Positions 4,323 to 25,988 of a stretch of DNA of 38,505 bases are shown piece by piece (the stretch's first letter is position 1; each line of letters opens with the position of its first letter). Below the pieces are notes generated by a model that did not search any database, was not told where the DNA came from, and was given only the letters and a program-made list of their open reading frames with translations. This DNA comes from Promethearchaeota archaeon (GTDB taxonomy: Archaea; Asgardarchaeota; Lokiarchaeia; Sigyniarchaeales; SOKP01): assembly GCA_016839705.1 (NCBI GenBank), contig JAEOTR010000038.1:1-38505 (forward strand), given 5' to 3'. The position numbers and the translations under genes were made by a program.

Positions 4323-4835
4323 TTGAAGGCACAAAAAAATACAAAGAAAAAACTTACTTCTCGTTTAGGGCAAAAGAAGAAATCCAAGGTTAAAAATGGG
4401 GAGGATTTAGATCGGGATGAAATTGTTAAAAATTTAAATGGTCGTACGCTTATGGTTTATTTTGCACTTTTAAATAAAAAATTTATCGGTGTACGCGATT
4501 TACAGCGACATTTAGAACTTTCAAGTCCTAGCGTAGCAAAATACCATCTTGAGAAATTGGTTGACTTACGTCTTGTAGAGAATAGAAATGGTATTTATCA
4601 TCTTGAAAGAAAAGCGAATTTGCCATTGTTAACTTCTTGGGTTTTGATCGGGAAACAACTAATCCCTAGGGTTATTTTCGCTGCTATTTTTTTTACTTTT
4701 CTTTTTATTGGTTATCTATTCCTAGTTTATACATATTGGAATAAAGATAGTTTATTTGTTATAATGTTTGGAGTACTAATTTTAGTTTATGTATGGTTTG
4801 ACGTGATCTTACAATTCAAACGGAAGCCAATTTAG
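4323..4835 (+). CDS. Membrane-anchored winged helix-turn-helix transcriptional regulator (ArsR-like HTH plus 2 C-terminal TM helices)
   Basis: 'LNGRTLMVYFALL...GVRDLQRHLELSSPSVAKYHLEKLVDLRLVENRNGIYHL' wHTH, then TMs 'VIFAAIFFTFLFIGYLFLVY' and 'LFVIMFGVLILVYVWF'. Confidence 0.85.
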   Translation: MKAQKNTKKKLTSRLGQKKKSKVKNGEDLDRDEIVKNLNGRTLMVYFALLNKKFIGVRDLQRHLELSSPSVAKYHLEKLVDLRLVENRNGIYHLERKANLPLLTSWVLIGKQLIPRVIFAAIFFTFLFIGYLFLVYTYWNKDSLFVIMFGVLILVYVWFDVILQFKRKPI

Positions 4836-4853
4836 TAAAAACCACATCTATCA

Positions 4854-4898
4854 TTGAGAACTCAGCGGGAGTTCTGAAATTTTTGATGGTGTTCTAAA
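4854..4898. promoter_or_regulatory. Inverted-repeat operator candidate upstream of the alpha-2-macroglobulin gene
   Basis: TTGAGAACTC-agcgg-GAGTTCTGAA (9/10 arm match) at 4854-4878, plus a third half-site GTGTTCTAAA at 4889-4898 (GTTCT repeated 20 bp apart). Confidence 0.5.
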
Positions 4899-4964: not shown

Positions 4965-7900
4965 ATGAATAGACACAGAAAAGGGAGTATCTTCTTATTA
5001 TTGGTTTGTATTCAATTTGTATTAATGGGTTTTAGTATTATGGGAACCAGTTCCTTTAATGAAAATGAGCAGGAAATTCCTAAAGAAAACGATCTTCCAA
5101 ATGAAGGCGTGTCACATTCATCTCCTTACTATTTTCCAATTAATAGATCATCCCCATTAATGACAGAAACATTAGAAGAAGTAGATTCTGATGAAAATCT
5201 CAAAACTGCTTATAATTATTATAATAATGATTATGTTTTAACACTCAATTTAGATAAATTCGTTCTTACAATCGGTGAAACTCTAACATTAAACTTAGGT
5301 TTAACCTGCAATTTATCTGCTTCCCCAGGAAGGATTATATCCGTAGAAATATATGAAGGATTTTACCGCAATTATTATTACTATTATCCAAGCTATTATG
5401 AGACTACAACACCAATTTATACGAAAAATCTTACTACTGATACTAATGGTCAAGCTTCAATGACATTCTCTTCGACGTCTACTGAAGGAATATATACCGT
5501 TTATGCCTACACCGAAGATTATCGAATTTATAAAGACTTTACCGTAGGTGAGGTTGGCATTTTCTATAAAGGACCAAGATATTATAAACCTAATCAGCAA
5601 TACCGCGCTGCTGTTCATATGGTTAATCTCACCGACTTTTCAGGTATACCATTTACATTTTTCAATTATTCAATTTCTTATTATCTATATTCTACTACCA
5701 GTTGGCATATATTGACAACAGATTTAATTCAAACCGATAATGCAGGATATTCGATTCTTAATACAGATATTCCGTTAGATGCTGATAATTATCATGTCCT
5801 TAGACTAACATTATCTACCCTTGATGGTAAAGCTGAGTATCAAACATTTTTATATGAGAGTTGGGAGTATTACTATTATTGTAGGTGGGGAGGACAGCAA
5901 AAAACTAATCAAGAACAATATCAATATGTTGTAACTACGGATAAAACAATCTATAACCCGGGTGATAATGTTTTTCTAAGAGCATTAGTGCTGCAGTACT
6001 CCTTTATGAATGAATCTAAAACTGCATTACATCATACCCCGATTTCCTTAACTATATATAATCCAGATGAATTTGCGATATTTTGGACAGATATTGTTAC
6101 TGACGAATTTGGCATCCTGTCTTTCAATTTTCCATTAGATGAAGATTGTGATCTTGGGAATTATGGTTTCGAGTTTAGTTATTCTGGTGAAACTTATAGA
6201 TATAATGTAAAGGTTGATTATTATATCAAACCTGTCTTCAGAGTAGAAATTGATACAAACGGAAAGGATTATTATTCTATTCATGAAAAATGGTTTGAAG
6301 GGTTTGTTGATGTTTCTTATTACTTTGGTCAACCGGTAGTAGGTGCAACTGTAGAACTAACGGTTCAAAGCTATTGGGGAGAAATCAAAAAAGTAATAGA
6401 AGGATACACAAATGGAGAAGGTAGATTTTATTTCTCAATAAATTTGCGGTTAATTCCGGATTTAGAGTACACTTTTAGAGTAAAAGCTGATGTAACCGAT
6501 GACTACGGAAGGAGTGCATCAACCGAAAAAATTTATACTCGTATTAGAGAATTATATGCTTATGGGTATTTAACAAATTGGGCACCTCATCCTGACGATA
6601 CTTTAGAATATTATTTTTATGCATTTCAATATGTTATGTCTGATTATGGTTATTGGTATTGGATGTATAATCCATTAGTAAATGTGAGTGTTAATATCGA
6701 AATCTTTGGAATTGCAAACTACCCTATCTATCCTTTAGTGTTAAAGGATAAACAACTTCTAACAACTTATTCTGAGAAAACAAATATATTTGGCTCTGGG
6801 AAATTAGAATTTAAACTACCATTAATTCATATAATGACATATAATCTCTTTGAAATTAGATTAACAGTTAATTTAGAAGATGGTCGAAGTACCTCTTCAT
6901 CTTACTATTATAGGTATAAGAAATACAGTTTGGACATTAATATACTAGAACCAACGTTAAACCCAGGCGATATTCTTGAATTTGAGGTTACTTTTAAAGA
7001 TATTCTCACAGGTTCTTCAAGTACAGGTGAAGGTAAAATATATATTTATGATGCTAATCACCAGTTAATTGGTCGGGTTAGTGATATAATATCTGGGAGT
7101 AAAACCTATACTTTTCTTATTCCAAGCTCCTCACCTGAAGGTAAATATTTTATTTATTCCTATGTTTATTCACGTCAAAATCAATATTATGGGGGATTTA
7201 ACTATCATTCTGCTCATGAAAACTTTATAGTGGGGGATTTTCAATCAATTTCATTTAGTACTAATTTTAGTACTACTGGAACTTATTATGATAAAATTAT
7301 AGTACAACTCGGTGATACTATTGAAATTAATGGTACTACAAATGTAACAACAAATATTCAGCATTATTTAGAGATTTATAAGCGTGGGGTACTTTTTTCA
7401 GTACCTTTAGAAATAAATGACAATAAATTTTCATATATTTTGTCTGTTATTCCTGAGTTTGTACCCGATTTTACTATAATTATCTACACAATCTCTGATT
7501 CAGGAAAACTTTATGAAAGTGTTCTAGCGGTACATATAGATTATAATTTTGGCATAAATCTTTCAACAGATAAAGAAACCTATGAACCAGGTGATCTAGT
7601 TACTCTAACCATAACACCAACAGAAAATATTACATCAGTTGTGGCACTTTCATTTATTGATAGTGCTGTTCTTGATGTAGAGCCAGAAGATGATTCCGAA
7701 TTAGCTTATTTTTCAGATCGTCCCTACTCAACCTACATTAGCTCAGGAAGCTCATGGGGATTTGGATTTAGTGCTGAAAGTTATTGGTGGTTTGGGTATG
7801 GCAGACTTACAGGAGGGATTTATTATTTACCACTGCCCTTGTTCGATGAATACTATACTGTATCGCTGGAATTCTTTGGTCGCGCCGATTTAAAATCTGA

Positions 7901-10900
7901 TACTCCTTCGTTCGATGAATTACTTTCTAATTTTGAAACGGATGTTCGAAAGAATATATCAGAATCAGCAAATTGGATGCCAGAATTGATAATTTCAGAA
8001 CCTACTGAGATCACTTTTAAGTTACCTGATAATATAGGTGAATGGACAATTAGAGCAGTGTGTAATAATATTTTTGAGAATTCTAACGATATTATCCTGT
8101 GGGGAGATGTAATAACCAAGCGGATTAAATCCTTTTTGCCATTTTTCATAGAATTTGAGATATCTGAACCTGTATTTCAAGATGATATCCTAAGCGTTAA
8201 AGGTTATGTTTACAATTATATTGGGACGGATGTTGATGCTACTGTGGCAATAAGTGCTCCTGAGCTTATTATATTGAATAAAGATGTACAAGAATTATTT
8301 ATTCCTGATGGCTATGTCTCTGAAGTGGAGTTTTCCGTATATTGTATAGAACCTTACTCCCAGAATATTACTCTTTTAGCGGCTGCTGAACCTTTTGGAG
8401 TAAAATATTCCGATGCTAAGCAATTGACAATTTATATCAAACCAAATGGTATTGAAATCATCAGTAGAACAATAGGTTTTTTAAATGCAACTGATGGGTC
8501 GCTAATTCTGAATCATACTATCGATCCCTTAACGATTTATCATAAAGAGACATTAGCATTATACGCCGATCTGATGGATATTTCTATCGATAGTTGGCAA
8601 TCCCTTATTGGCTATCCATATGGATGCATAGAACAAACAATATCTAAAACACTTCCCACAGCTCTTATATTTAATTATTTAAATCAAACCGGGCAACTTA
8701 CGAGTAATTTAAAGCAAGAATTGAGTTTTATGATTTTAGATGGCCTAGGTCGTATTTATAACTTTCAGCATAACGATGGTGGGTGGGGTTGGTGGAGAAA
8801 TGATGCTTCTAAAATAATAATGACTTCTATAGTCGTATTCGCGTTAAATAAAATTGAGGAAGTGGGATTCCAGATTAATTCAGATATTTTAAATAAAGGG
8901 ATAGATTATTTAATTGCACAACAACATCCGAATGGTCTCTGGGATTTTCAAGAATACTCTTCAAATACATTAGAAGCGACAGCGTTTATTTTAAAGACAT
9001 TTTTATGTTCAAAACAAATTACAACAGAGATGAATACAGCGATTACTAGTGCAGTTAGTGAGTTAGCAAATTTATGGAATTCAGGAGATATGAAGAGTAC
9101 ATATGGAGCTTCTTTATTTTATATTGCAACTCTAGGTAGCATTTATGAGAATATCACTCTAAATAATGAATTAATTCAATACATTAAAGACGATAAGAAG
9201 GTTGAAGAAGATACGATATTTTGGGAGAGTGATACAAACAGTATTTGGTATTGGCGAAAATTGGGGAAAAAAGTAGAGATTACCTCCTACGCTACATTAG
9301 CTCTTGCCATGGATGATTATATAAGCAATTATGCCTTAATCCAAAAAGCCGTTAGATTTTTGTTGAACCAGCGTAATCGTTGGGGTTGGGGATCAACAGC
9401 GGATACTTCAGCTGCAATTATAGCTTTAACAGAAATAAATGGGATTATGATTAATGGTGGAATCATAGATTTCAATGGAACAATTTCTATAATAGTCAAT
9501 AACAACACACCACCTCAATATTTTTTAAATGTTACAGAAATGAATAACCACCCAGATGAAATCTTATTAAAACTCTCTGCTTTTATGCTAGGGAATCTTA
9601 ATACAATCAATATTACACTAGACGGGATTGGTACAATATGTTATATATTTGAAAGTGTGCAGATTTTAAGGTCAGACCCAAAAATAGAGATCCCAGAGAT
9701 AATAGAAGTCTCTAAAAATGAGCATTTTTATTTCCCAGTAGAATTCTCAAACATTGATGAACGAATGCCATTGGTAGATACTACAATATCACTACTTGAC
9801 GTTCCTGATAATTTCTCTGATCCTGAAGCAGACTATATAATTGTTCACCCTCTCATTATAAATGGAAGCAAAATCTATTTTCCTTTAATAGCCCCAAATA
9901 ATGACGGTGATTATTTCTTAGAAGGAGTTTCAATTCTTGGTTATATTCAATACAATGACACCTCTAGTAATTCATCAAGATTTCAACCTTTTCAACAAAC
10001 AATCGGACCTATAATAATACGTGTTGGATCACATTCACAATCATTATTCCCATCCATTGAACCAATTAATCCCGTTATAGAACCACAAATAATAACTATT
10101 AAAAAACAAATGTCAAAACAAAAACTACTTACTTCAGGAGAAGTGATAAATGTCACATTACATATTACAAATACCGGAGACTCGCGCCAATTCTACGTCG
10201 TGGAAGATGAGCTACCTACAGGTACAGTTTTTTTACCTGATTCTGTTATAATCTCAGACAACTATGATGACACAGAAATTACTTATGGTTTATATTCATC
10301 GGGAATTCATTTCTTCTTCCCAATGCTAAGTACGGGAATTACAGAAATTATATATCAAGTTCAAGTAATAAATATTAAAAACGCTTACTCAGGTAGTTGC
10401 AAACTTTGGGGTATGTATGATGATATTCTTATTTCTGCAAAATCAATTGTGCTTGAAAACATTCCACGTAAACATTATGCTAATCAGTTGGTTTATCAAG
10501 ATTTAATGGAACCACTTATTTTAAACACCAGCATCAAACAAAGTTATAAAATCCCAGACATTCACCTTCAAATTAATATTGATGCAATCGACAACAATCT
10601 TATCAATAAAATTCGGGTCGTTTTTTCACAAAAATCTGGCTGGAGATCTCAAACTCTATATTCAATGGATAATCAAGGTGAATTCTCAATTACTATTACA
10701 GATCTCAAGAACATTAACTCTGTGATAACATTATTTATTGAAGTTTCTGATATATATGGTAATACAGCTACAATGATATTAATGCCAATAAAAATTACCG
10801 CTTATGAACTTATACCTTATTTAATCGTGGTGATAATTGTAGGTTTTTCAATTGGATTGGCTAGTATATCTACGATTCTGTATAAGAACTCAGTAGAAAA

Positions 10901-10994
10901 GAAAAAAAGAATAAATGATAGTTGGGATGAGAAACCTAAGGATGTAATCTCATTTTTAGATAACTCTGATGAAAAATTTGAAATCTCTTCTTAA
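4965..10994 (+). CDS. Alpha-2-macroglobulin family / thioester-containing protein with signal peptide and C-terminal TM anchor
   Basis: MG-domain motifs (TTDKTIYNPGD, STDKETYEPGD, TDEFG, VDYYIKPVFRV), 'VRKNISESANW...FKLPDNIGEWTIRA', thioester YPYGCIEQT (C1221, nt 8625-8636), TED motifs FQHNDGGWGWW, VEITSYATLA, WGSTADTSAAIIAL, terminal MG-like 'GEVINVTLHI...YVVEDELPTG'. AGGAG RBS. Confidence 0.93.
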   Translation: MNRHRKGSIFLLLVCIQFVLMGFSIMGTSSFNENEQEIPKENDLPNEGVSHSSPYYFPINRSSPLMTETLEEVDSDENLKTAYNYYNNDYVLTLNLDKFVLTIGETLTLNLGLTCNLSASPGRIISVEIYEGFYRNYYYYYPSYYETTTPIYTKNLTTDTNGQASMTFSSTSTEGIYTVYAYTEDYRIYKDFTVGEVGIFYKGPRYYKPNQQYRAAVHMVNLTDFSGIPFTFFNYSISYYLYSTTSWHILTTDLIQTDNAGYSILNTDIPLDADNYHVLRLTLSTLDGKAEYQTFLYESWEYYYYCRWGGQQKTNQEQYQYVVTTDKTIYNPGDNVFLRALVLQYSFMNESKTALHHTPISLTIYNPDEFAIFWTDIVTDEFGILSFNFPLDEDCDLGNYGFEFSYSGETYRYNVKVDYYIKPVFRVEIDTNGKDYYSIHEKWFEGFVDVSYYFGQPVVGATVELTVQSYWGEIKKVIEGYTNGEGRFYFSINLRLIPDLEYTFRVKADVTDDYGRSASTEKIYTRIRELYAYGYLTNWAPHPDDTLEYYFYAFQYVMSDYGYWYWMYNPLVNVSVNIEIFGIANYPIYPLVLKDKQLLTTYSEKTNIFGSGKLEFKLPLIHIMTYNLFEIRLTVNLEDGRSTSSSYYYRYKKYSLDINILEPTLNPGDILEFEVTFKDILTGSSSTGEGKIYIYDANHQLIGRVSDIISGSKTYTFLIPSSSPEGKYFIYSYVYSRQNQYYGGFNYHSAHENFIVGDFQSISFSTNFSTTGTYYDKIIVQLGDTIEINGTTNVTTNIQHYLEIYKRGVLFSVPLEINDNKFSYILSVIPEFVPDFTIIIYTISDSGKLYESVLAVHIDYNFGINLSTDKETYEPGDLVTLTITPTENITSVVALSFIDSAVLDVEPEDDSELAYFSDRPYSTYISSGSSWGFGFSAESYWWFGYGRLTGGIYYLPLPLFDEYYTVSLEFFGRADLKSDTPSFDELLSNFETDVRKNISESANWMPELIISEPTEITFKLPDNIGEWTIRAVCNNIFENSNDIILWGDVITKRIKSFLPFFIEFEISEPVFQDDILSVKGYVYNYIGTDVDATVAISAPELIILNKDVQELFIPDGYVSEVEFSVYCIEPYSQNITLLAAAEPFGVKYSDAKQLTIYIKPNGIEIISRTIGFLNATDGSLILNHTIDPLTIYHKETLALYADLMDISIDSWQSLIGYPYGCIEQTISKTLPTALIFNYLNQTGQLTSNLKQELSFMILDGLGRIYNFQHNDGGWGWWRNDASKIIMTSIVVFALNKIEEVGFQINSDILNKGIDYLIAQQHPNGLWDFQEYSSNTLEATAFILKTFLCSKQITTEMNTAITSAVSELANLWNSGDMKSTYGASLFYIATLGSIYENITLNNELIQYIKDDKKVEEDTIFWESDTNSIWYWRKLGKKVEITSYATLALAMDDYISNYALIQKAVRFLLNQRNRWGWGSTADTSAAIIALTEINGIMINGGIIDFNGTISIIVNNNTPPQYFLNVTEMNNHPDEILLKLSAFMLGNLNTINITLDGIGTICYIFESVQILRSDPKIEIPEIIEVSKNEHFYFPVEFSNIDERMPLVDTTISLLDVPDNFSDPEADYIIVHPLIINGSKIYFPLIAPNNDGDYFLEGVSILGYIQYNDTSSNSSRFQPFQQTIGPIIIRVGSHSQSLFPSIEPINPVIEPQIITIKKQMSKQKLLTSGEVINVTLHITNTGDSRQFYVVEDELPTGTVFLPDSVIISDNYDDTEITYGLYSSGIHFFFPMLSTGITEIIYQVQVINIKNAYSGSCKLWGMYDDILISAKSIVLENIPRKHYANQLVYQDLMEPLILNTSIKQSYKIPDIHLQINIDAIDNNLINKIRVVFSQKSGWRSQTLYSMDNQGEFSITITDLKNINSVITLFIEVSDIYGNTATMILMPIKITAYELIPYLIVVIIVGFSIGLASISTILYKNSVEKKKRINDSWDEKPKDVISFLDNSDEKFEISS

Positions 10995-11274
10995 AAATCA
11001 CTTTTTTAGTATTATAAATTTTTTTCATTAAATCGCCTTAAAATGTATTAGAAGAAGTATTATAATATAATTTTAAAAATCCATATTTACTTCTTAAACT
11101 AAAACTAATATTAAATCTAATATTAGCTTAGACGTTGTCATCTTTTTTTAATGATATTAGAAGAGAAGTTTAAACACAGTCTAAGAGTCCATTGAGAGTT
11201 CCTATTCTTAAACTATATATTAAATCCTGTGAATATTATTATTATAGAAAAAAACAAAAAAAGTGAAAAAAAAA

Positions 11275-11496
11275 ATGACCCAAGCTTATGAAAATGTAAT
11301 GGAAATGAATATGATTGAAGTTGAAGAGATTGAAATTCCTGAAGTTCAAAAAGCTCCCGAAAATAAGGCTGATGATCTAATTGGAGATTTAAATCCACGA
11401 TATTATGAAGAAGCAATTACTATGAATGAAGCTCACGACCGAATTCATTCAGCTAAAGCTTATTCTAATACGAGTTTCAATTCTTATGGTTTTTAA
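11275..11496 (+). CDS. Small acidic hypothetical protein (likely start ATG 11275 rather than GTG 11263)
   Basis: Open frame MTQAYENVMEMN...SYGF with GAA/GCT-rich codons, TATA-like TATATATTAAA near 11214-11224 and a downstream oligo-T tract. Confidence 0.7.
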   Translation: MTQAYENVMEMNMIEVEEIEIPEVQKAPENKADDLIGDLNPRYYEEAITMNEAHDRIHSAKAYSNTSFNSYGF

Positions 11497-11519: not shown

Positions 11520-11728
11520 AAATAAAATACTATTTTATAATAATAAACCTATAATTTTTGATTTCTTCTTAGAAAGTTTCTTGTTATCTTTATGAAGTAT
11601 AAGCTCTTAAAAATTAGAGAATCATATTTTTTTTTCTTCCCTTTATTTTATAAATAAAAACGTCACCCAAAAAATTAATTTTAATAATTCTGCTAATTTA
11701 TACAACTCAATACAAGGTGATTTATAAA

Positions 11729-12760
11729 ATGATTGAAACGAATATTACAAAAATGTTTGGGTTGAAATACCCTATATTTTCTGCACCAATGGGTCCTTTT
11801 TTCACACGAGATTTAGCCCTTGCGGTGAGTGAAGCTGGTGGATTGGGTGTATTATCAAATGTTAACATAATTGGAACAAATCCAGTTGAAGAACATAAAA
11901 AAAGCATTGAATATATGATTGAACATACTGATAAACCATTTGGTCTCAATTTTCTTACATCTCGTAACAATATAGGTGTTAAGGAAATGTGTACTGATGT
12001 TCCGAAAATAGTTATGGATAATCCGAGAATGAGAGAGCAATGTGTCTATTGGTTGACCTCTGCAGGATCCTCAAAGATTCTACCTGCTTCGAAACCCTTC
12101 CAAGAGTTACGGGAAAGATCGGAAGTAAAACACTTTCACGTAGCACCAGCTGTATGGTTAGCACAGAAATGTGTAGAAGCCCAGGTGGATGGAATAGTAT
12201 GCACTGGTACTGAAGGAGGAGGACATCAGTCCTATGAGAAGGTTACAACGTTAGTTTTACTCCAACAACTTGCAAAAGCTTTCCCGGATTTGCCTAAAAT
12301 TGCATGTGGAGGATTTGCAACAGGAGAAGGTTTAGCAGCAGCATTATCATTAGGAGCAGGAGCAATAGCTATGGGTTCACGATTTATAGCATCAAAACAA
12401 AGTGAATTTAATGAAGCGTATAAAAAATTAATCCCTCCAGGAACCCCTCAAGATACAGGATTGTTTACCGGGTCTTTCGGTCCTATCAGATTATATCGGA
12501 ATAAATATGCGTTAGAGCATCCAGCACCCTCTACTAAAGAGGAAATGATGGCTTATGAAAGATCCCTAACGATGGAACAGAGGACACGTGATGCAGGTGC
12601 ATATGAAAGGATATATAACGGAGATACTGAAAATGGTGCAGTATTACTTGGACAATCAATCGGAATTATTAAGAGTATTGATGATGTAAACGATATCATT
12701 GAAAGAGTCATGAAAGAAGCAGAATCAGCGATACGTAAAAATGCTGCTATGCTTAAATAA
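11729..12760 (+). CDS. Nitronate monooxygenase / FabK-like FMN protein (paralog 2, close to paralog 1)
   Basis: Same motifs as paralog 1 (GTEGGGHQSYEKV, IACGGFATG, IAMGSRF). The GTG at 11717 is part of an AAGGTGA RBS, so the start is probably ATG 11729. Confidence 0.9.
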   Translation: MIETNITKMFGLKYPIFSAPMGPFFTRDLALAVSEAGGLGVLSNVNIIGTNPVEEHKKSIEYMIEHTDKPFGLNFLTSRNNIGVKEMCTDVPKIVMDNPRMREQCVYWLTSAGSSKILPASKPFQELRERSEVKHFHVAPAVWLAQKCVEAQVDGIVCTGTEGGGHQSYEKVTTLVLLQQLAKAFPDLPKIACGGFATGEGLAAALSLGAGAIAMGSRFIASKQSEFNEAYKKLIPPGTPQDTGLFTGSFGPIRLYRNKYALEHPAPSTKEEMMAYERSLTMEQRTRDAGAYERIYNGDTENGAVLLGQSIGIIKSIDDVNDIIERVMKEAESAIRKNAAMLK

Positions 12761-13323: not shown

Positions 13324-14295
13324 TTAAAAAGTGGTTTTTAACCTATTAATAACAGATTCGGCTTCTTCCATTATTCTATCCAATAATTCCTTTGCAGTAG
13401 GAATATCTTTAATTAAACCTATACCTTGACCACAGCTTACCATACCCGCGTCTATTTCACCTTCTCTATACATTTTTAATGCATTTTGACCAGAGGCTAC
13501 TTGAATTATTTCCTCTAAAGGAGCTTTTTTAGATTCCAATTCAATTATTTTTTCAGCAGCTTTATTTCTCCAAACTCTATGGGTATTACGAATAGATCGC
13601 ATGACTAAATGAGTATCTGTTTCTTGAGCTTGAACAAAAGCTTGTTTTAGATTATCGTGAATAGGACATTCTTGAGTTGCCATCATCCTAGTCCCCATAA
13701 TAACACCTTCAGCACCAAGTGCTAAAGCAGCAGCAATTCCTCGTCCATCGGTAATTCCTCCCCCAGCGATTACTGGAACATCTATAGCATCTACAACACA
13801 TGGGGTCATAACAAGAGTACCGATATCTAAAGTTCCTGTTGCACCACCATTTTCATACCCAACTACAGTTATCATATCAGCGCCCAAAGATGCAGCTGTT
13901 TTGGCATATCTTACACCTGCACATTTATGAATCCAAATAGCGCCACCATCCCTAAATTTTGGGACCAAATCTGCAGGGGCCTTATGGCCACTTGTTTCGA
14001 TTATTTTCGCACCCTCATCAAGAGTTGCTCCTACATACAGTTCCAATTTCTCTTGCGGCATCATTGCGGGAAATAAATTTATATTTACAGCAAAGGGTTT
14101 ATCAGTTAAGGACTGTGTTTTTTTAATTGCTTCCCGTAACTCATCAGGAGTTTTGTAATTAGCACTGGCTAAAACCGCACATGCACCAGCATTGCTTACT
14201 GCAGCAACAAATTCAGGATTTGAGATATTTGCCATAGTCCCCGATATAATAGGATATTTACATCCTAACATTTCAGTAACTTTCGTTTTAATCAT
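13324..14295 (-). CDS. Nitronate monooxygenase / FabK-like FMN protein (paralog 3; His replaced)
   Basis: KTKVTEMLGCKYPII, AAVSNAG, TDKPFAVN, GYENGGA (canonical EAGGH), PVIAGGGITDGRG, GVIMGTR, CGQGIG. Confidence 0.9.
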   Translation of the reverse strand: MIKTKVTEMLGCKYPIISGTMANISNPEFVAAVSNAGACAVLASANYKTPDELREAIKKTQSLTDKPFAVNINLFPAMMPQEKLELYVGATLDEGAKIIETSGHKAPADLVPKFRDGGAIWIHKCAGVRYAKTAASLGADMITVVGYENGGATGTLDIGTLVMTPCVVDAIDVPVIAGGGITDGRGIAAALALGAEGVIMGTRMMATQECPIHDNLKQAFVQAQETDTHLVMRSIRNTHRVWRNKAAEKIIELESKKAPLEEIIQVASGQNALKMYREGEIDAGMVSCGQGIGLIKDIPTAKELLDRIMEEAESVINRLKTTF

Positions 14296-19149: not shown

Positions 19150-22100
19150 TTAAGATACAGCTATTAAACTTTCTTCAGAAGTGTAGATAGTAATGCTGTC
19201 GACAATGAGGAGCCATTTAAATCTTATTACGATGTCAGTTGTAGTACTATTAACAAATCCGTTTAAAATTATTCCTTCACCAGAATAAAGAGTAGTGTTA
19301 ATTAACGTAAAATTAATGCCTGAGTATAATCCATAGGTGAAAGTGGCATTTTCCAATGGATATAAACTAGGTGAAACTTCAATAGAGAAATCTCCACCTC
19401 CTTCTCTGTATAGCGATAGATTTACTTGTACATTATGTCCCGGTGCTGAAAGAGTATCATTAAAGTTTTCGAGTTCTATTCTAAAACTAGCAAGATCGTC
19501 AGGTAAAATAATTGAATTCTCCATATTAAACACGTAAGTAATAGGGACTATTTCGACATCTATTATTAGAGTGTTTGAAGTTTTATTTCCAAATTCATTA
19601 GTTGCTTCTACGTAAAATTCATATAATCCTGTTCCCAATTCTGAGACTGAATAAGTAGTTTGCGAACTTGGTAAATCTGTTGCGAGCAAAGTATTATTTC
19701 TATAAACTGAATATGTTTCAGCTAATAAGGATTGAGTCCAATTCAATGCAAAATCACCGTCAATATCTGGACTGCCTGCATCAGATGTCAGGGTAAATGC
19801 ACCTGGTTCAATGTTTCCCAATTGATTATAAGCATCATAAGCTTCTGACCCATAGCCTACTTTCCTGGTGAAAGCTTCCACAAATCCTGCTAATTTCAGT
19901 TGTTGTAATCCCCCAACTGAACTATAAGTTGGAATGTAATAATAAACTGAACCTCCAAGAGGATATAAAAGCGTATTACCCATTCTAGCACCCGAAATCA
20001 AGGAAATTTGTTGGGTTGCTTCCGTTTCATAGGTGTCTCTTGCTGTTTTAGGACCAATCAAGTTTTCAGTTGCGTTTCTAGTATGATAAAATATAGCTTC
20101 CCCAAAATTTGTCCCATGCCGAATAACATACATTCCTGCTAAAGTTCTTGCTTCTATCCCTTGATATTCTACTAGATCTAATCCTACGTATTCTATCCCA
20201 TCTCCGAGATTTGTTTCGATATAGAAGAGATCTCCGCGTTCTGGTCTTTCGTGAAAATCATCTCCTCTTTTCCATGTTGTTAAATCCTGAACGTGATATT
20301 TGTAATTTGCTTTTAACTGTAATTCAAATAAGGTTTCAGGATATCTCAATTGGTTTTTTAACCAAAGTGGAGCAACTTGCCAATCGTAAATTTTCGTGTA
20401 ATATTCCCAAAGAGGATATGTCGGATCTAAGCTTGCATCAATTCCTTCTAAATTGGGATTTTCATAAAATTTCATCACACCGGTTTTTACATCAATTAAA
20501 CTAATTCCTAAAAATCTTAATATGGGAGAATTAGCATATGATCCAATATTTATTGTTGTGAAAATTGAAACTGCATAATACATCTTTTCTTCTTGACTGT
20601 CAAAAACTAAATATGGATCATAATCTATACTTAATTGAGGTAAAAGTATGTTTGCTACACGTTTTTTCACATTTCTATTAATTAAAAATTCTTTATTACC
20701 GCCCTCAAAAACATAACCCCACAATCCTAAATTTAGTGTGTACCAAAATGCATCTAAACCGGCTAATGTCCCGTCTGGCTCACCCACATCATTATAAACA
20801 TACTTATTATTAGTAATTCCTTTACTCCAATTAGTACCAAGAAGGATAGAATTATCGTAAGCCCCTAAACTTCCACCGGATTCATGCTGTTCTAAAAATT
20901 TCTGGCTTTCAGATTCACCGAAAAATATTGGATAATCATCAGGAACATTAAAAATAGAACTTACATTAACTAATTCTCCTGTGAATGTGTCTAAGGCTAA
21001 AAAACCTTCAACATGATCATACAATTCAGTATTAGTTCTAACAGGATCTCCCGAAAATTGAGATAATCTAACAGTTTTCGGTGCAACCCAATATTCTGTT
21101 CCATTTATATAAACAATATCTGAATCTGCTAATCCCTCAAATGTGGTGCCTATTTTCGCCGCTAAACTTTGCACTGCAAAATCTTGATCAAATTGTCTTA
21201 TACGTGAGATCATTTGAGTATCATTTTCAGGATTGGATGATTGCGTAAAGTCATCAATAGAACGCTCTTCAAACATGTCCAATCCTGCACACTCTCGGGT
21301 CCATAAAATTTCTCTTTCGATTTTCTTTGTCCATTGATATTCAGAATATACTGAAGTATTACTTAATGTTATAGCTGGACCTATACTAAAAAGCATCGGT
21401 ATTAAAATGACAATAATAACGGCTGTTGCTAGTATTCCCATCCTTATTCTTCGAGGATTTATTGTCATCCTATTTGTAGGATTTCGTGCTAATTTAATGC
21501 GTCCAAGAATAAATACTAAAATACCCAAAGCTAAGAGAATAAAAAATGCTAAAATTAGAGACCACATTTGTATTACTTGGATTCCGTCTAAAGCGTAAGC
21601 AGGTAAAGAAAAAAATACCAATCCCAAAACTAAACCACCTATTACTAAGCCATTTCCTGCGATATTGTAGTCATTTCTTCTCAAATAATAGTTGCTTGCT
21701 ATGTTAAGGGCCAACCTGAATATAAGAACTCCGAAAATAAAGTAAATTAGAGGCAAATATAATCGAGTATAAACAAAAATAAATTCGATATTCATGCTGT
21801 TATAATTTAAAAGTACATCAAGGGCATCTGTGAAAATTGTAAGTGGTGACAAGGTAATTTCTCCTCTTTCATATAAAAATAAAACCCAAGAAAATTGACC
21901 ATCAAAATCCAGCGCCATACCTATGAAATAGAATAAGATAAAACCTACGGTCCACCAGAAAATTAATGATTTTATCCTAGATGGTTTTCCAAATTTTAAT
22001 CGAGTTCCTATAATTGTCAAAAGATTTTGATTGGGTGGCACACTCATTATTATACAACCAATTATAGCCCCAGTCAAAGCTGTTTTATTGAAAAAGAAAT

Positions 22101-22473
22101 TAATCGACCAAAAATTTAGAAAGTAAAAATCATAAAAATTCAACCCCCCTGCTTTGTTTTGGTAGAGTTGATAATTTAAATTGAGTGGACCAAACCATGC
22201 AGGCCAAAACCAGAAGAAGGATAAAAGTACAAGGATTACCACAACAACGGGAATAATAATCTTAAGATATTTTTTCACTCGGGGTTTATTTTTAAACCAG
22301 TTAGACTCCAGAATCTTTTTACGAGGCGGTTTTCTAGGACTTTCAATCGTATCAAGCTCTCCTCGCTCTAAGAGTTTTACTTTCTGTTGTAGTTCATATT
22401 TCCGATTAGCTTCTTGACAGTCTTCGCAATAATAATTAAATTTTTCATGCTTTTCACAAGACTTTTTTACCAT
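19150..22473 (-). CDS. UPF0182 (COG1615) family membrane protein with N-terminal Zn finger and C-terminal FN3/Ig-like domains
   Basis: About 8 TMs followed by 'IEREILWTR..GL', 'PIFFGE', 'RNVKKRVANILLP..DYDPYLV', 'QLRYPETLFELQ..YHVQD', 'MGNTLLYPLGGSVYYYIPTY'. N-terminal CxxH-x6-CxxC. Confidence 0.85.
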   Translation of the reverse strand: MVKKSCEKHEKFNYYCEDCQEANRKYELQQKVKLLERGELDTIESPRKPPRKKILESNWFKNKPRVKKYLKIIIPVVVVILVLLSFFWFWPAWFGPLNLNYQLYQNKAGGLNFYDFYFLNFWSINFFFNKTALTGAIIGCIIMSVPPNQNLLTIIGTRLKFGKPSRIKSLIFWWTVGFILFYFIGMALDFDGQFSWVLFLYERGEITLSPLTIFTDALDVLLNYNSMNIEFIFVYTRLYLPLIYFIFGVLIFRLALNIASNYYLRRNDYNIAGNGLVIGGLVLGLVFFSLPAYALDGIQVIQMWSLILAFFILLALGILVFILGRIKLARNPTNRMTINPRRIRMGILATAVIIVILIPMLFSIGPAITLSNTSVYSEYQWTKKIEREILWTRECAGLDMFEERSIDDFTQSSNPENDTQMISRIRQFDQDFAVQSLAAKIGTTFEGLADSDIVYINGTEYWVAPKTVRLSQFSGDPVRTNTELYDHVEGFLALDTFTGELVNVSSIFNVPDDYPIFFGESESQKFLEQHESGGSLGAYDNSILLGTNWSKGITNNKYVYNDVGEPDGTLAGLDAFWYTLNLGLWGYVFEGGNKEFLINRNVKKRVANILLPQLSIDYDPYLVFDSQEEKMYYAVSIFTTINIGSYANSPILRFLGISLIDVKTGVMKFYENPNLEGIDASLDPTYPLWEYYTKIYDWQVAPLWLKNQLRYPETLFELQLKANYKYHVQDLTTWKRGDDFHERPERGDLFYIETNLGDGIEYVGLDLVEYQGIEARTLAGMYVIRHGTNFGEAIFYHTRNATENLIGPKTARDTYETEATQQISLISGARMGNTLLYPLGGSVYYYIPTYSSVGGLQQLKLAGFVEAFTRKVGYGSEAYDAYNQLGNIEPGAFTLTSDAGSPDIDGDFALNWTQSLLAETYSVYRNNTLLATDLPSSQTTYSVSELGTGLYEFYVEATNEFGNKTSNTLIIDVEIVPITYVFNMENSIILPDDLASFRIELENFNDTLSAPGHNVQVNLSLYREGGGDFSIEVSPSLYPLENATFTYGLYSGINFTLINTTLYSGEGIILNGFVNSTTTDIVIRFKWLLIVDSITIYTSEESLIAVS

Positions 22474-25094: not shown

Positions 25095-25988
25095 TTACAA
25101 ATTTCTAAATTCATTCCCGGTAACACCCCAAGTTCTTAGAATCCTTTCAGCATTTGAAACAATATTCTCAATAAATTCTTTAATCGATGTTTCCTCATTC
25201 ACATGACCGACAGCCATCGAACCTACTGGAGAGTCCCGTAATTCAAGATGGAAAATTTTCTTATAAAATTTTTCATCAAATATATCTTGGTACAATACTT
25301 GCTTCTTCCAAGCCTCTGAAGCGGGACTTTCTTTTGTTGCCATAATAGCACTTCCAAAACAAACAGCATCAGCACCCATCGCCAGAGCCGCTAGAAATCC
25401 GCGCGCATCGCCTATGCCTCCTGCGGCGATTAAAGGAACTTTTATGAGTTTTCTAGCCATTGTCATATTAACAAGTGTAGTATTCTGATTTGGATTTTTG
25501 AATCCAGTACCCTCTAAACCTACAATGGTCACTGCATCCGCACCCGCTCTCTCTGCTGAAATAGCGTGTTTTACTGTAGCACTCTTATGAAACCACACTC
25601 CCCCTGCATCGTGTACTTTTTTACCAATCCTTGCTGCTTTATAAGCAGAAGTAGTAATTACCTTGACTCCTTCTTCTAAGGCAATATCAACAAAATCAAA
25701 ATATGATTCCTCAGATTGAACTCGTCCTCCGCTTTGTCTAACTTGGGGAGGCCAAACTGTATAATTTACCCCAAAAGGTTTGTTTGTTAATTTTTTCATT
25801 TTTTTAATTTCATCATAAAATTCATCAGAAGTTCTAAAATTTAAAGCAGTAATGATTCCCAAACCACCGGCATTTGAAAATGCTGCTGCAAATTCAGCTT
25901 TTCCTATGATGGCAAAAGCACCCATTATAATAGGGTATTGGGTATTCATCATTTTGGTTATTCTGGTATTCCAAATCATTTTTATCAC
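25095..25988 (-). CDS. Nitronate monooxygenase / FabK-like FMN protein (paralog 4; His replaced)
   Basis: NTRITKMMNTQYPIIMG, AFSNAGGLG, TNKPFGVN, GLEGTGF, PLIAAGGIGDARG, AVCFGS. Confidence 0.88.
   Translation of the reverse strand: MIKMIWNTRITKMMNTQYPIIMGAFAIIGKAEFAAAFSNAGGLGIITALNFRTSDEFYDEIKKMKKLTNKPFGVNYTVWPPQVRQSGGRVQSEESYFDFVDIALEEGVKVITTSAYKAARIGKKVHDAGGVWFHKSATVKHAISAERAGADAVTIVGLEGTGFKNPNQNTTLVNMTMARKLIKVPLIAAGGIGDARGFLAALAMGADAVCFGSAIMATKESPASEAWKKQVLYQDIFDEKFYKKIFHLELRDSPVGSMAVGHVNEETSIKEFIENIVSNAERILRTWGVTGNEFRNL

Follow-up and report, generated by a model that had tools for sequence, protein, structure and literature searches.

The stretch of DNA analysed here (the window, 38,505 nucleotides) comes from a Promethearchaeota archaeon and encodes a thioester protein of the alpha-2-macroglobulin (A2M) family, 2009 amino acids (aa) in length. 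The A2M gene, an open reading frame (ORF) at 4965-10994 (+), is preceded in the same orientation by a gene for a putative membrane-tethered regulator. The source genome falls in the same order as L. ossiferum and P. syntrophicum (GTDB, Lokiarchaeia), and in a sister genome the genes flanking the A2M are kept in synteny, at 77-93% identity. The contig is Asgard, as the initial annotation of this DNA had judged probable from the letters alone, and nothing points to a bacterial or chimeric origin. The A2M gene occurs in single copy in the 3.36-Mb, 93%-complete genome, and its G+C content is 32.1%, compared with 32.8% for the contig. The two genes and the segment between them carry the following features (window coordinates, with the supporting evidence).

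4323..4835 (+): winged-helix (ArsR/TrmB-like) regulator, putatively membrane-tethered by two transmembrane helices; start uncertain (TTG 4323); weak Pfam HTH_5/TrmB, two hydrophobic helices, orthologues at 59-86% identity
4870..4913 (+): conserved promoter/operator candidate of the A2M gene, a TGTTCT-type direct repeat with a 20-bp period; 13 loci, matrix
4965..10994 (+): A2M-family thioester protein, 2009 aa; ORF, Pfam, single copy
4965..5048 (+): signal peptide with basic n-region and hydrophobic aa 7-27; hydropathy, present in almost every full-length homologue
5232..5546 (+): extra MG-type domain at the N-terminus, aa 90-194, which eukaryotic thioester-containing proteins (TEPs) lack; alignment starts
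5553..8444 (+): a further eight beta-sandwiches of MG type, aa ~197-1160, among them MG7 and the domain that bears the bait; AlphaFold2, Pfam
7815..7919 (+): hypervariable bait, aa 951-985, after a conserved Trp/Tyr-rich stretch; identity, length variation, predicted local distance difference test (pLDDT)
8562..9434 (+): thioester domain (TED), alpha/alpha barrel, aa 1200-1490; Pfam 3e-33, model, VIA Z 28
8613..8636 (+): YPYGCIEQ thioester motif with pocket tyrosines Y1217/Y1219; invariance in 74 homologues
8940..8981 (+): site lacking the ~12-residue His/Asn loop of C3/CD109/A2M, aa 1326-1339; alignment gap
9675..10034 (+): beta-sandwich inserted after CUB and before the C-terminal MG domain, aa ~1571-1690, then a flexible linker; confident strands in the model, no Pfam match, linker identity 0.34
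10083..10469 (+): C-terminal MG domain (bMG10-type), with invariant Met1817-Tyr1818 predicted to shield the thioester; Pfam, 74 homologues, PMC4498604
10494..10799 (+): membrane-proximal stalk, probably Ig-like; weak Big_1 match (E=0.037), several invariant residues
10809..10991 (+): C-terminal transmembrane helix, aa 1949-1973, with a small-residue GxxxG-type pattern, and a 36-aa cytoplasmic tail; hydropathy, conservation

Domain architecture, thioester pocket and bait

Pfam matches follow the expected order along the protein, with TED at 3e-33 (aa 1200-1490), MG2 at 3.5e-17, A2M_BRD at 7e-10, A2M at 3e-6, MG3 at 2e-5 and a weak bMG10 match at 0.003, while neither an anaphylatoxin nor a C345C domain was found in the scan. 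Matches to squalene cyclases were set aside as reflecting the shared alpha/alpha barrel. Two AlphaFold2 models, spanning aa 50-1074 and aa 860-1860 (pLDDT 79), show nine MG-type sandwiches followed by CUB and by the TED as a helical barrel, after which come an inserted sandwich, a flexible linker and the C-terminal MG domain. The model of the C-terminal part aligns with TEP1r at a VIA Z of 34 (710 aligned residues, root-mean-square deviation 5.0), and its TED aligns with the isolated C5 TED at a VIA Z of 28. It lies nearer to native forms (TM-scores 0.59-0.60 to CD109 and A2ML1, 0.56-0.60 with TEP1 included) than to activated ones (0.30). The Z-scores against TEP1, C3, A2M and A2ML1 differ by 2 units or less and do not discriminate between them. 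As a whole, the protein has the full architecture of the A2M/TEP superfamily, with MG ring, CUB, TED and C-terminal MG domain in order. The C-terminal MG domain carries a Met-Tyr pair and the bMG10 match; an A2M_recep-type MG8 domain with a Tyr-Tyr motif was not found there.

Hydropathy marks two hydrophobic stretches, the signal at aa 7-27 and a transmembrane helix at aa 1949-1973, the latter followed by a tail of 36 aa that is Lys-rich and then acidic. Signal peptide, CxEQ motif and C-terminal helix are present in essentially all full-length homologues. An N-terminal lipoprotein anchor was not borne out, the signal cysteine C15 being kept in only 20 of 74 homologues. Within Lokiarchaeia the transmembrane helix is better conserved (identity 0.66) than the tail (0.35) or the signal peptide (0.53), and its small-residue pattern does not recur in Hodar/Heimdall-type homologues. 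The protein has 29 N-glycosylation sequons. Its ectodomain contains 28 of them, where shuffled sequences would give 19.8 (p=0.03); the excess is real though modest, amounting to 1.32x across Lokiarchaeia homologues and 0.98x in the Hodar/Heimdall type. Several sequons are kept in 37-43 of 43 Lokiarchaeia homologues, and AglB/STT3 is encoded in the genome. Taken from these sequence features, the protein is probably N-glycosylated.

The initial annotation had anticipated much of this architecture. The 2009-aa ORF with its signal peptide, the intact YPYGCIEQ thioester, more than 20 sequons and the C-terminal helix with a charged tail were all recovered; the proposed TED is modelled as an alpha/alpha barrel around CxEQ, and profiles for all four families it had named (MG2, A2M, A2M_BRD and TED) match. 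Its seven MG-opening motifs are present at aa 96, 203, 325, 432, 538, 662 and 868, but the models show nine MG-type domains before CUB and TED. Of its glycosylated, C-terminally tethered surface trap, the tether is supported, as are, with probability, glycosylation (AglB/STT3) and protease trapping at the surface.

The YPYGCIEQ motif lies at aa 1217-1224, with C1221 and Q1224 as the putative thioester pair. Across 74 homologues, down to 24% identity, Y1217, P1218, G1220, C1221, E1223, Q1224, M1817 and Y1818 are invariant, and Y1219 nearly so. In the pocket described by Fyfe et al. for bacterial A2Ms, two TED tyrosines act together with a Met-Tyr pair of the C-terminal MG domain, whereas in eukaryotes all four residues are supplied by the C-terminal domain (PMC4498604). 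Judged by its residues, the thioester pocket of the Asgard A2M is of the bacterial type. Furthermore, the His/Asn loop is a gap in 14 of 14 Asgard rows of the alignment and is present in the Methanosarcinales, Planctomycetes-Verrucomicrobia-Chlamydiae (PVC) and eukaryotic rows. This loop bears a His in C3 and CD109 and an Asn in A2M, and the catalytic His of C3 and C4B directs attachment to hydroxyls. By analogy with C3/C4 chemistry, the missing loop would favour amine-directed trapping rather than C3b-like opsonisation.

Identity among close homologues is lower in the bait than in any other internal segment (0.20 at aa 957-976, compared with ~0.7 elsewhere); the bait also varies in length and has a pLDDT below 50 in both models. 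A disordered, variable bait inserted in an MG6-type domain is thus present, as in other members of the A2M/TEP family; unlike CD109, the Asgard A2M has no obvious furin-type site. At the N-terminus, eukaryotic TEPs align from aa ~197 only, whereas the Salmonella and E. coli A2Ms align from aa ~89, suggesting that the first domain is the counterpart of the extra N-terminal domain of the bacterial proteins.

Distribution, upstream regulator and proposed function

About 90 homologues of 1950-2080 aa were found in Lokiarchaeia and in genomes labelled Hodarchaeales, Heimdallarchaeota, Kariarchaeaceae and Thorarchaeota. The A2M and regulator pair is found in both cultured species of Lokiarchaeia, P. 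syntrophicum and L. ossiferum. The spread is patchy: the membrane-type A2M occurs in 17 of the 201 Asgard genomes searched, a count on which the label "Asgard-wide" was rejected, with 9 of 10 genomes in one family and 6-7 of 37 in the genus. The next-nearest homologues are transmembrane-anchored proteins of Thermoplasmata and bacterial A2Ms of the Chloroflexi/Ignavibacteria type. In one genome of the same genus the A2M orthologue (G001:C425:12193-13711) changes frame near aa 400 and then meets the contig end.

Orthologues of the regulator were found in 12 of 60 relatives, at 59-81% identity. These 12 genomes are exactly those that hold the N-terminal half of the A2M, always on the same contig and strand, the two genes being adjacent in 10 and one gene apart in 2. 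Two more relatives have only the C-terminal part of the A2M, at a contig edge, and with the queries used neither gene was found in the other 46. Since the 12 genomes are kin, we read this pattern as co-inheritance and draw no independent statistic from it. In Lokiarchaeia, then, a winged helix-turn-helix (wHTH) protein with transmembrane helices is stably linked to the gene of a membrane partner. Between the two genes, the proximal copy of the repeat merges into an A/T-rich TATA-like box that lies 55-70 bp ahead of the ATG; this copy keeps a fixed position in 13 loci, with 10 invariant columns. A matrix built without the window finds the window site as its sole match in the 3.36-Mb genome and, yielding no second site there, gives no sign of a regulon. 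A perfect palindrome at 4857-4875 was rejected as the conserved element, as it occurs only in the window; what is conserved is the direct repeat with its 20-bp period. The co-inherited regulator and the conserved promoter site are additions beyond the initial annotation.

At 7 of 9 loci, paralogues of the regulator lie directly behind, and mostly overlap, genes of further surface proteins with a C-terminal anchor; among these partners are a solute-binding protein of the peptide-binding kind and proteins with a parallel beta-helix. In these paralogous cassettes (contig C42:54006-55753; L125-L131), the gene of an anchored beta-helix or family-5 solute-binding protein overlaps that of a wHTH protein with two transmembrane helices (wHTH-2TM), and upstream of the C42 cassette lies a perfect inverted repeat of 11 bp built on TGTTC half-sites. 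An A2M of another clade, from Ca. Altarchaeum (P0428, aa 35-145), carries an ArsR-type winged helix and a transmembrane helix fused at its N-terminus. The paralogue loci and this fusion suggest that a surface protein paired with a membrane regulator is a general cassette of the lineage, in which the A2M occupies the surface slot.

We consider it likely that the protein is a type-I membrane, probably N-glycosylated, monomeric surface bait-and-trap protease inhibitor under a dedicated membrane-tethered wHTH regulator. The trap is indicated by the complete domain set, the match of the model to native forms, the invariant thioester and pocket residues, the variable bait and the C-terminal helix, and the regulator by its sharing 12 of 60 relatives with the A2M N-terminal half and by a promoter site both conserved and unique in the genome. 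In such a mechanism, the protein would be exported through its signal peptide and retained by its C-terminal helix, both recognisable in the sequence. The Cys1221-Gln1224 thioester, a bond expected from bacterial A2Ms, would be buried between TED and C-terminal MG domain by Y1217, Y1219, M1817 and Y1818. A foreign protease would then cleave the exposed, fast-evolving and disordered bait at aa ~950-990. By analogy with ECAM, SaA2M and CD109, the TED would swing out and the thioester acylate a lysine of the protease, an amine preference suggested by the missing His loop, leaving the protease tethered and sterically blocked. CD109 provides a precedent as a C-terminally anchored, monomeric A2M that traps proteases (PMC12927315); the proposed trap would resemble ECAM and SaA2M in its chemistry and CD109 in its topology. 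In Lokiarchaeia, the wHTH-2TM protein may bind the repeat before the A2M promoter and set expression, as co-inheritance and the conserved site suggest.

Several points weigh against this interpretation. No biochemistry on any archaeal A2M was found in the open literature. Binding, and not baiting, could be the role of the bait loop's conserved aromatic first half and of the two extra sandwich domains. The relatedness of the 12 regulator-bearing genomes removes their independence, and the conserved site may be a basal promoter of unusual conservation instead of an operator. Furthermore, seven loci of Hodar/Heimdall/Kari type have no upstream regulator, which suggests that the regulatory step is lineage-specific.

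Two other functions were weighed. The A2M may be the receptor half of a two-protein transmembrane cassette, in which cleavage or shedding at the bait would be passed through the transmembrane helix to the wHTH-2TM protein and switch transcription on. This would extend the trap rather than exclude it, trapping then also being sensing. Strict co-inheritance in Lokiarchaeia, the paralogues behind other anchored surface proteins in 7 of 9 loci, and a small-residue pattern of the A2M helix conserved only in the regulator-bearing lineage all speak for it, as does the Altarchaeum fusion; yet the fusion is a single sequence of different topology, and the helix conservation may stem from shared ancestry. 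The regulator has almost no extracellular part, no candidate signal was identified, and most non-Loki Asgard homologues do without it. We regard the receptor as plausible, though unlikely on balance. Hardly more favoured, as a tentative idea, is a modular Lokiarchaeia cassette of type-I surface protein and wHTH-2TM regulator with the thioester trap as its sensing module, by which surface proteolysis would be both neutralised and reported. To our knowledge, no A2M-family protein of prokaryotes has been assigned the role of receptor for a transcription regulator. As a covalent adhesin or opsonin, the protein would attach by its thioester to the surfaces of partners, prey or viruses, in the manner of C3b or insect TEP1. 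Such a role would suit the outer-surface location, the structural resemblance to TEP1 and C3, and the life of Lokiarchaeia in contact with syntrophic partners. We judge it improbable: the loop with the catalytic His of C3/C4B is deleted, anaphylatoxin and C345C domains are missing, a variable bait stands at the A2M position, and the resemblance itself is non-discriminating, with Z-scores to TEP1, C3, A2M and A2ML1 within 2 units.

In a search of the open literature for macroglobulins or thioester-containing proteins in Asgard archaea or Lokiarchaea, which left subscription journals outside, no relevant paper on the clade or the regulator pair was found. With the gene pair in both cultured Lokiarchaeia, the extracellular defence of an Asgard cell becomes open to proteomics, transcriptomics and work on recombinant protein. 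The co-inherited regulator is the part worth testing; if the trap does drive it, the pair would form a receptor system for sensing proteases, constructed from a fold of immune type.

Phylogenetic placement and the origin of eukaryotic TEPs

The tree comprises 72 rows and 480 columns of MG7-CUB-TED (IQ-TREE, LG+C20+F+G4 with posterior mean site frequencies); it has no independent root, few eukaryotes and flagged compositional heterogeneity. It contains no C3, the sole C3 retrieved lacking the thioester Cys, and CD109 and human A2M were compared by score only. The Asgard transmembrane-type A2Ms form one clade (100/100) outside both bacterial type I and the Chloroflexi/Ignavibacteria group, among mostly archaeal deep branches whose order the tree does not settle. 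Ten animal TEPs and one from an intron-poor microbial eukaryote form another (100/96), nested in A2Ms of Methanosarcinales, Altiarchaeota, Planctomycetes, Omnitrophota, Acidobacteria and Anaerolineae by four successive strongly supported branches (among them 100/98, 100/100 and 100/100 in succession). The Asgard A2M is not the source of animal A2M, CD109 or complement.

A precursor role for the Asgard A2M in the origin of eukaryotic TEPs (CD109, A2M, complement) had nonetheless some appeal. CD109 is its best sequence match in the PDB (E 3e-34, vs 2e-10 for YfhM), in one Asgard family 9 of 10 genomes carry the gene, and a deep 100/100 split places Asgard and eukaryotic proteins together on one side, apart from bacterial type I. 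Yet the A2M of Methanolobus scores far higher against human A2M and CD109 (423 and 385 bits) than the Asgard A2M does (77 and 121 bits), and the His/Asn loop, the Tyr-Tyr C-terminal motif and A2M_recep are common to the eukaryotes and the clade that encloses them, and not to Asgard. Forcing Asgard and eukaryotes into one group costs 202 log-likelihood units and is rejected by the approximately unbiased (AU) test (p=7.5e-13), which, together with the four strong branches, makes such a precursor exceedingly improbable. The relevance to eukaryotic TEP origins claimed by the initial annotation is not supported, and of its two anticipated tree outcomes neither materialised, the Asgard clade being neither sister to eukaryotes nor nested in the bacterial groups. 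Its view that the protein is closer to CD109 than to YfhM holds for the side of anchoring only; pocket, extra N-terminal domain and missing His/Asn loop are bacterial-type. For the origin of eukaryotic thioester proteins, an old question, the tree points from Asgard to the Methanosarcinales/Altiarchaeota/bacterial clade.

The nearest prokaryotic kin of eukaryotic TEPs (the P0112/P0389/P0445/P0453 clade; L136:6001-10992) are bacterial and Methanosarcinales/Altiarchaeota A2Ms, which share His loop, Tyr-Tyr motif and A2M_recep domain with them. The two closest lie on contigs of 1.9-4.4 Mb, one adjoining vWA/MoxR and trypsin genes. A 1601-aa TEP (L106:3799-8604; a 383-member cluster) is sister to the animal TEPs, and its neighbours, a Ca-binding mitochondrial carrier and an mRNA cap methyltransferase, suggest an intron-poor microbial eukaryote as its source. 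A second Asgard A2M clade (P0169, L089, L093, L096 and L097; YPHGCxEQ) stands apart from the membrane type in the tree; its member P0169, from Freyarchaeota, contains an actin fragment in the bait (Pfam Actin 9e-9, aa 841-903).

Elsewhere in the window, a 77-aa acidic ORF (11263-11496, +) lies in the 720-bp gap after the A2M gene. Four nitronate-monooxygenase/enoyl-reductase-like paralogues (1603-2682, 11717-12760, 13324-14295 and 25095-25988), with thioesterase, enoyl-CoA hydratase, acyl-CoA dehydrogenase and CoA-transferase-like genes, make up a region of fatty-acid/acyl-CoA metabolism unrelated to the A2M. A 1107-aa membrane protein (19150-22473, -; UPF0182 match 1e-12) is encoded next to a 759-aa secreted protein without a Pfam match.

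Comparison with known systems

Type I bacterial A2Ms (E. coli ECAM/YfhM, Salmonella SaA2M; PDB 5a42, 4u48) share with the Asgard protein the CxEQ motif, the pocket of two TED tyrosines and a Met-Tyr pair, ten MG-type domains with an extra N-terminal one, the lack of a His/Asn loop and the form of a membrane-bound monomer. In contrast to them, the Asgard A2M has a C-terminal transmembrane helix instead of an N-terminal lipid, faces the outside and not the periplasm, carries a stalk and an extra domain between CUB and the C-terminal MG domain, has no adjacent pbpC among the neighbours at the examined loci, and is distant in the tree. Type II bacterial A2Ms (MagD/YfaS) lack CxEQ and belong to a six-gene operon, whereas the Asgard CxEQ is intact and no such operon is present. 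Human CD109 (PDB 8s3o, 9fx2; PMC12927315) resembles the Asgard A2M in its C-terminal surface anchor, in glycosylation (probable in Asgard) and in combining bait and thioester. Unlike CD109, the Asgard A2M is anchored by a transmembrane helix with a cytoplasmic tail rather than by glycosylphosphatidylinositol, has a bacterial-type pocket, lacks the His loop and A2M_recep, and does not form a sister lineage (AU test as above).

Among archaea, Makarova et al. (2021) described A2Ms with intact CxEQ (27 proteins in 24 genomes), proposed a role in inter-microbial conflict and noted a regulator gene beside the halobacterial modules (PMC8416519). The Asgard protein shares with these signal peptide, Ig/MG domains and a TED with CxEQ; their text names Halobacteria and Methanomicrobia, and not the Asgard clade, the C-terminal transmembrane type or a membrane-tethered regulator. 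The "CD109 antigen"-like A2Ms of Methanosarcinales, Altiarchaeota and PVC bacteria belong to the same superfamily and have an intact thioester; unlike the Asgard A2M, they are about 1400 aa long, have no C-terminal transmembrane helix, and possess the His loop and A2M_recep. As for the regulator, membrane-tethered one-component regulators with a partner protein are represented by ToxR/ToxS and CadC/LysP. Likened by description only, the Asgard pair likewise combines a membrane-held winged helix on the cytoplasmic side with a membrane partner whose gene lies next to its own; unlike in those systems, that partner is a 2000-aa thioester protein, and the regulator itself has no extracellular domain.

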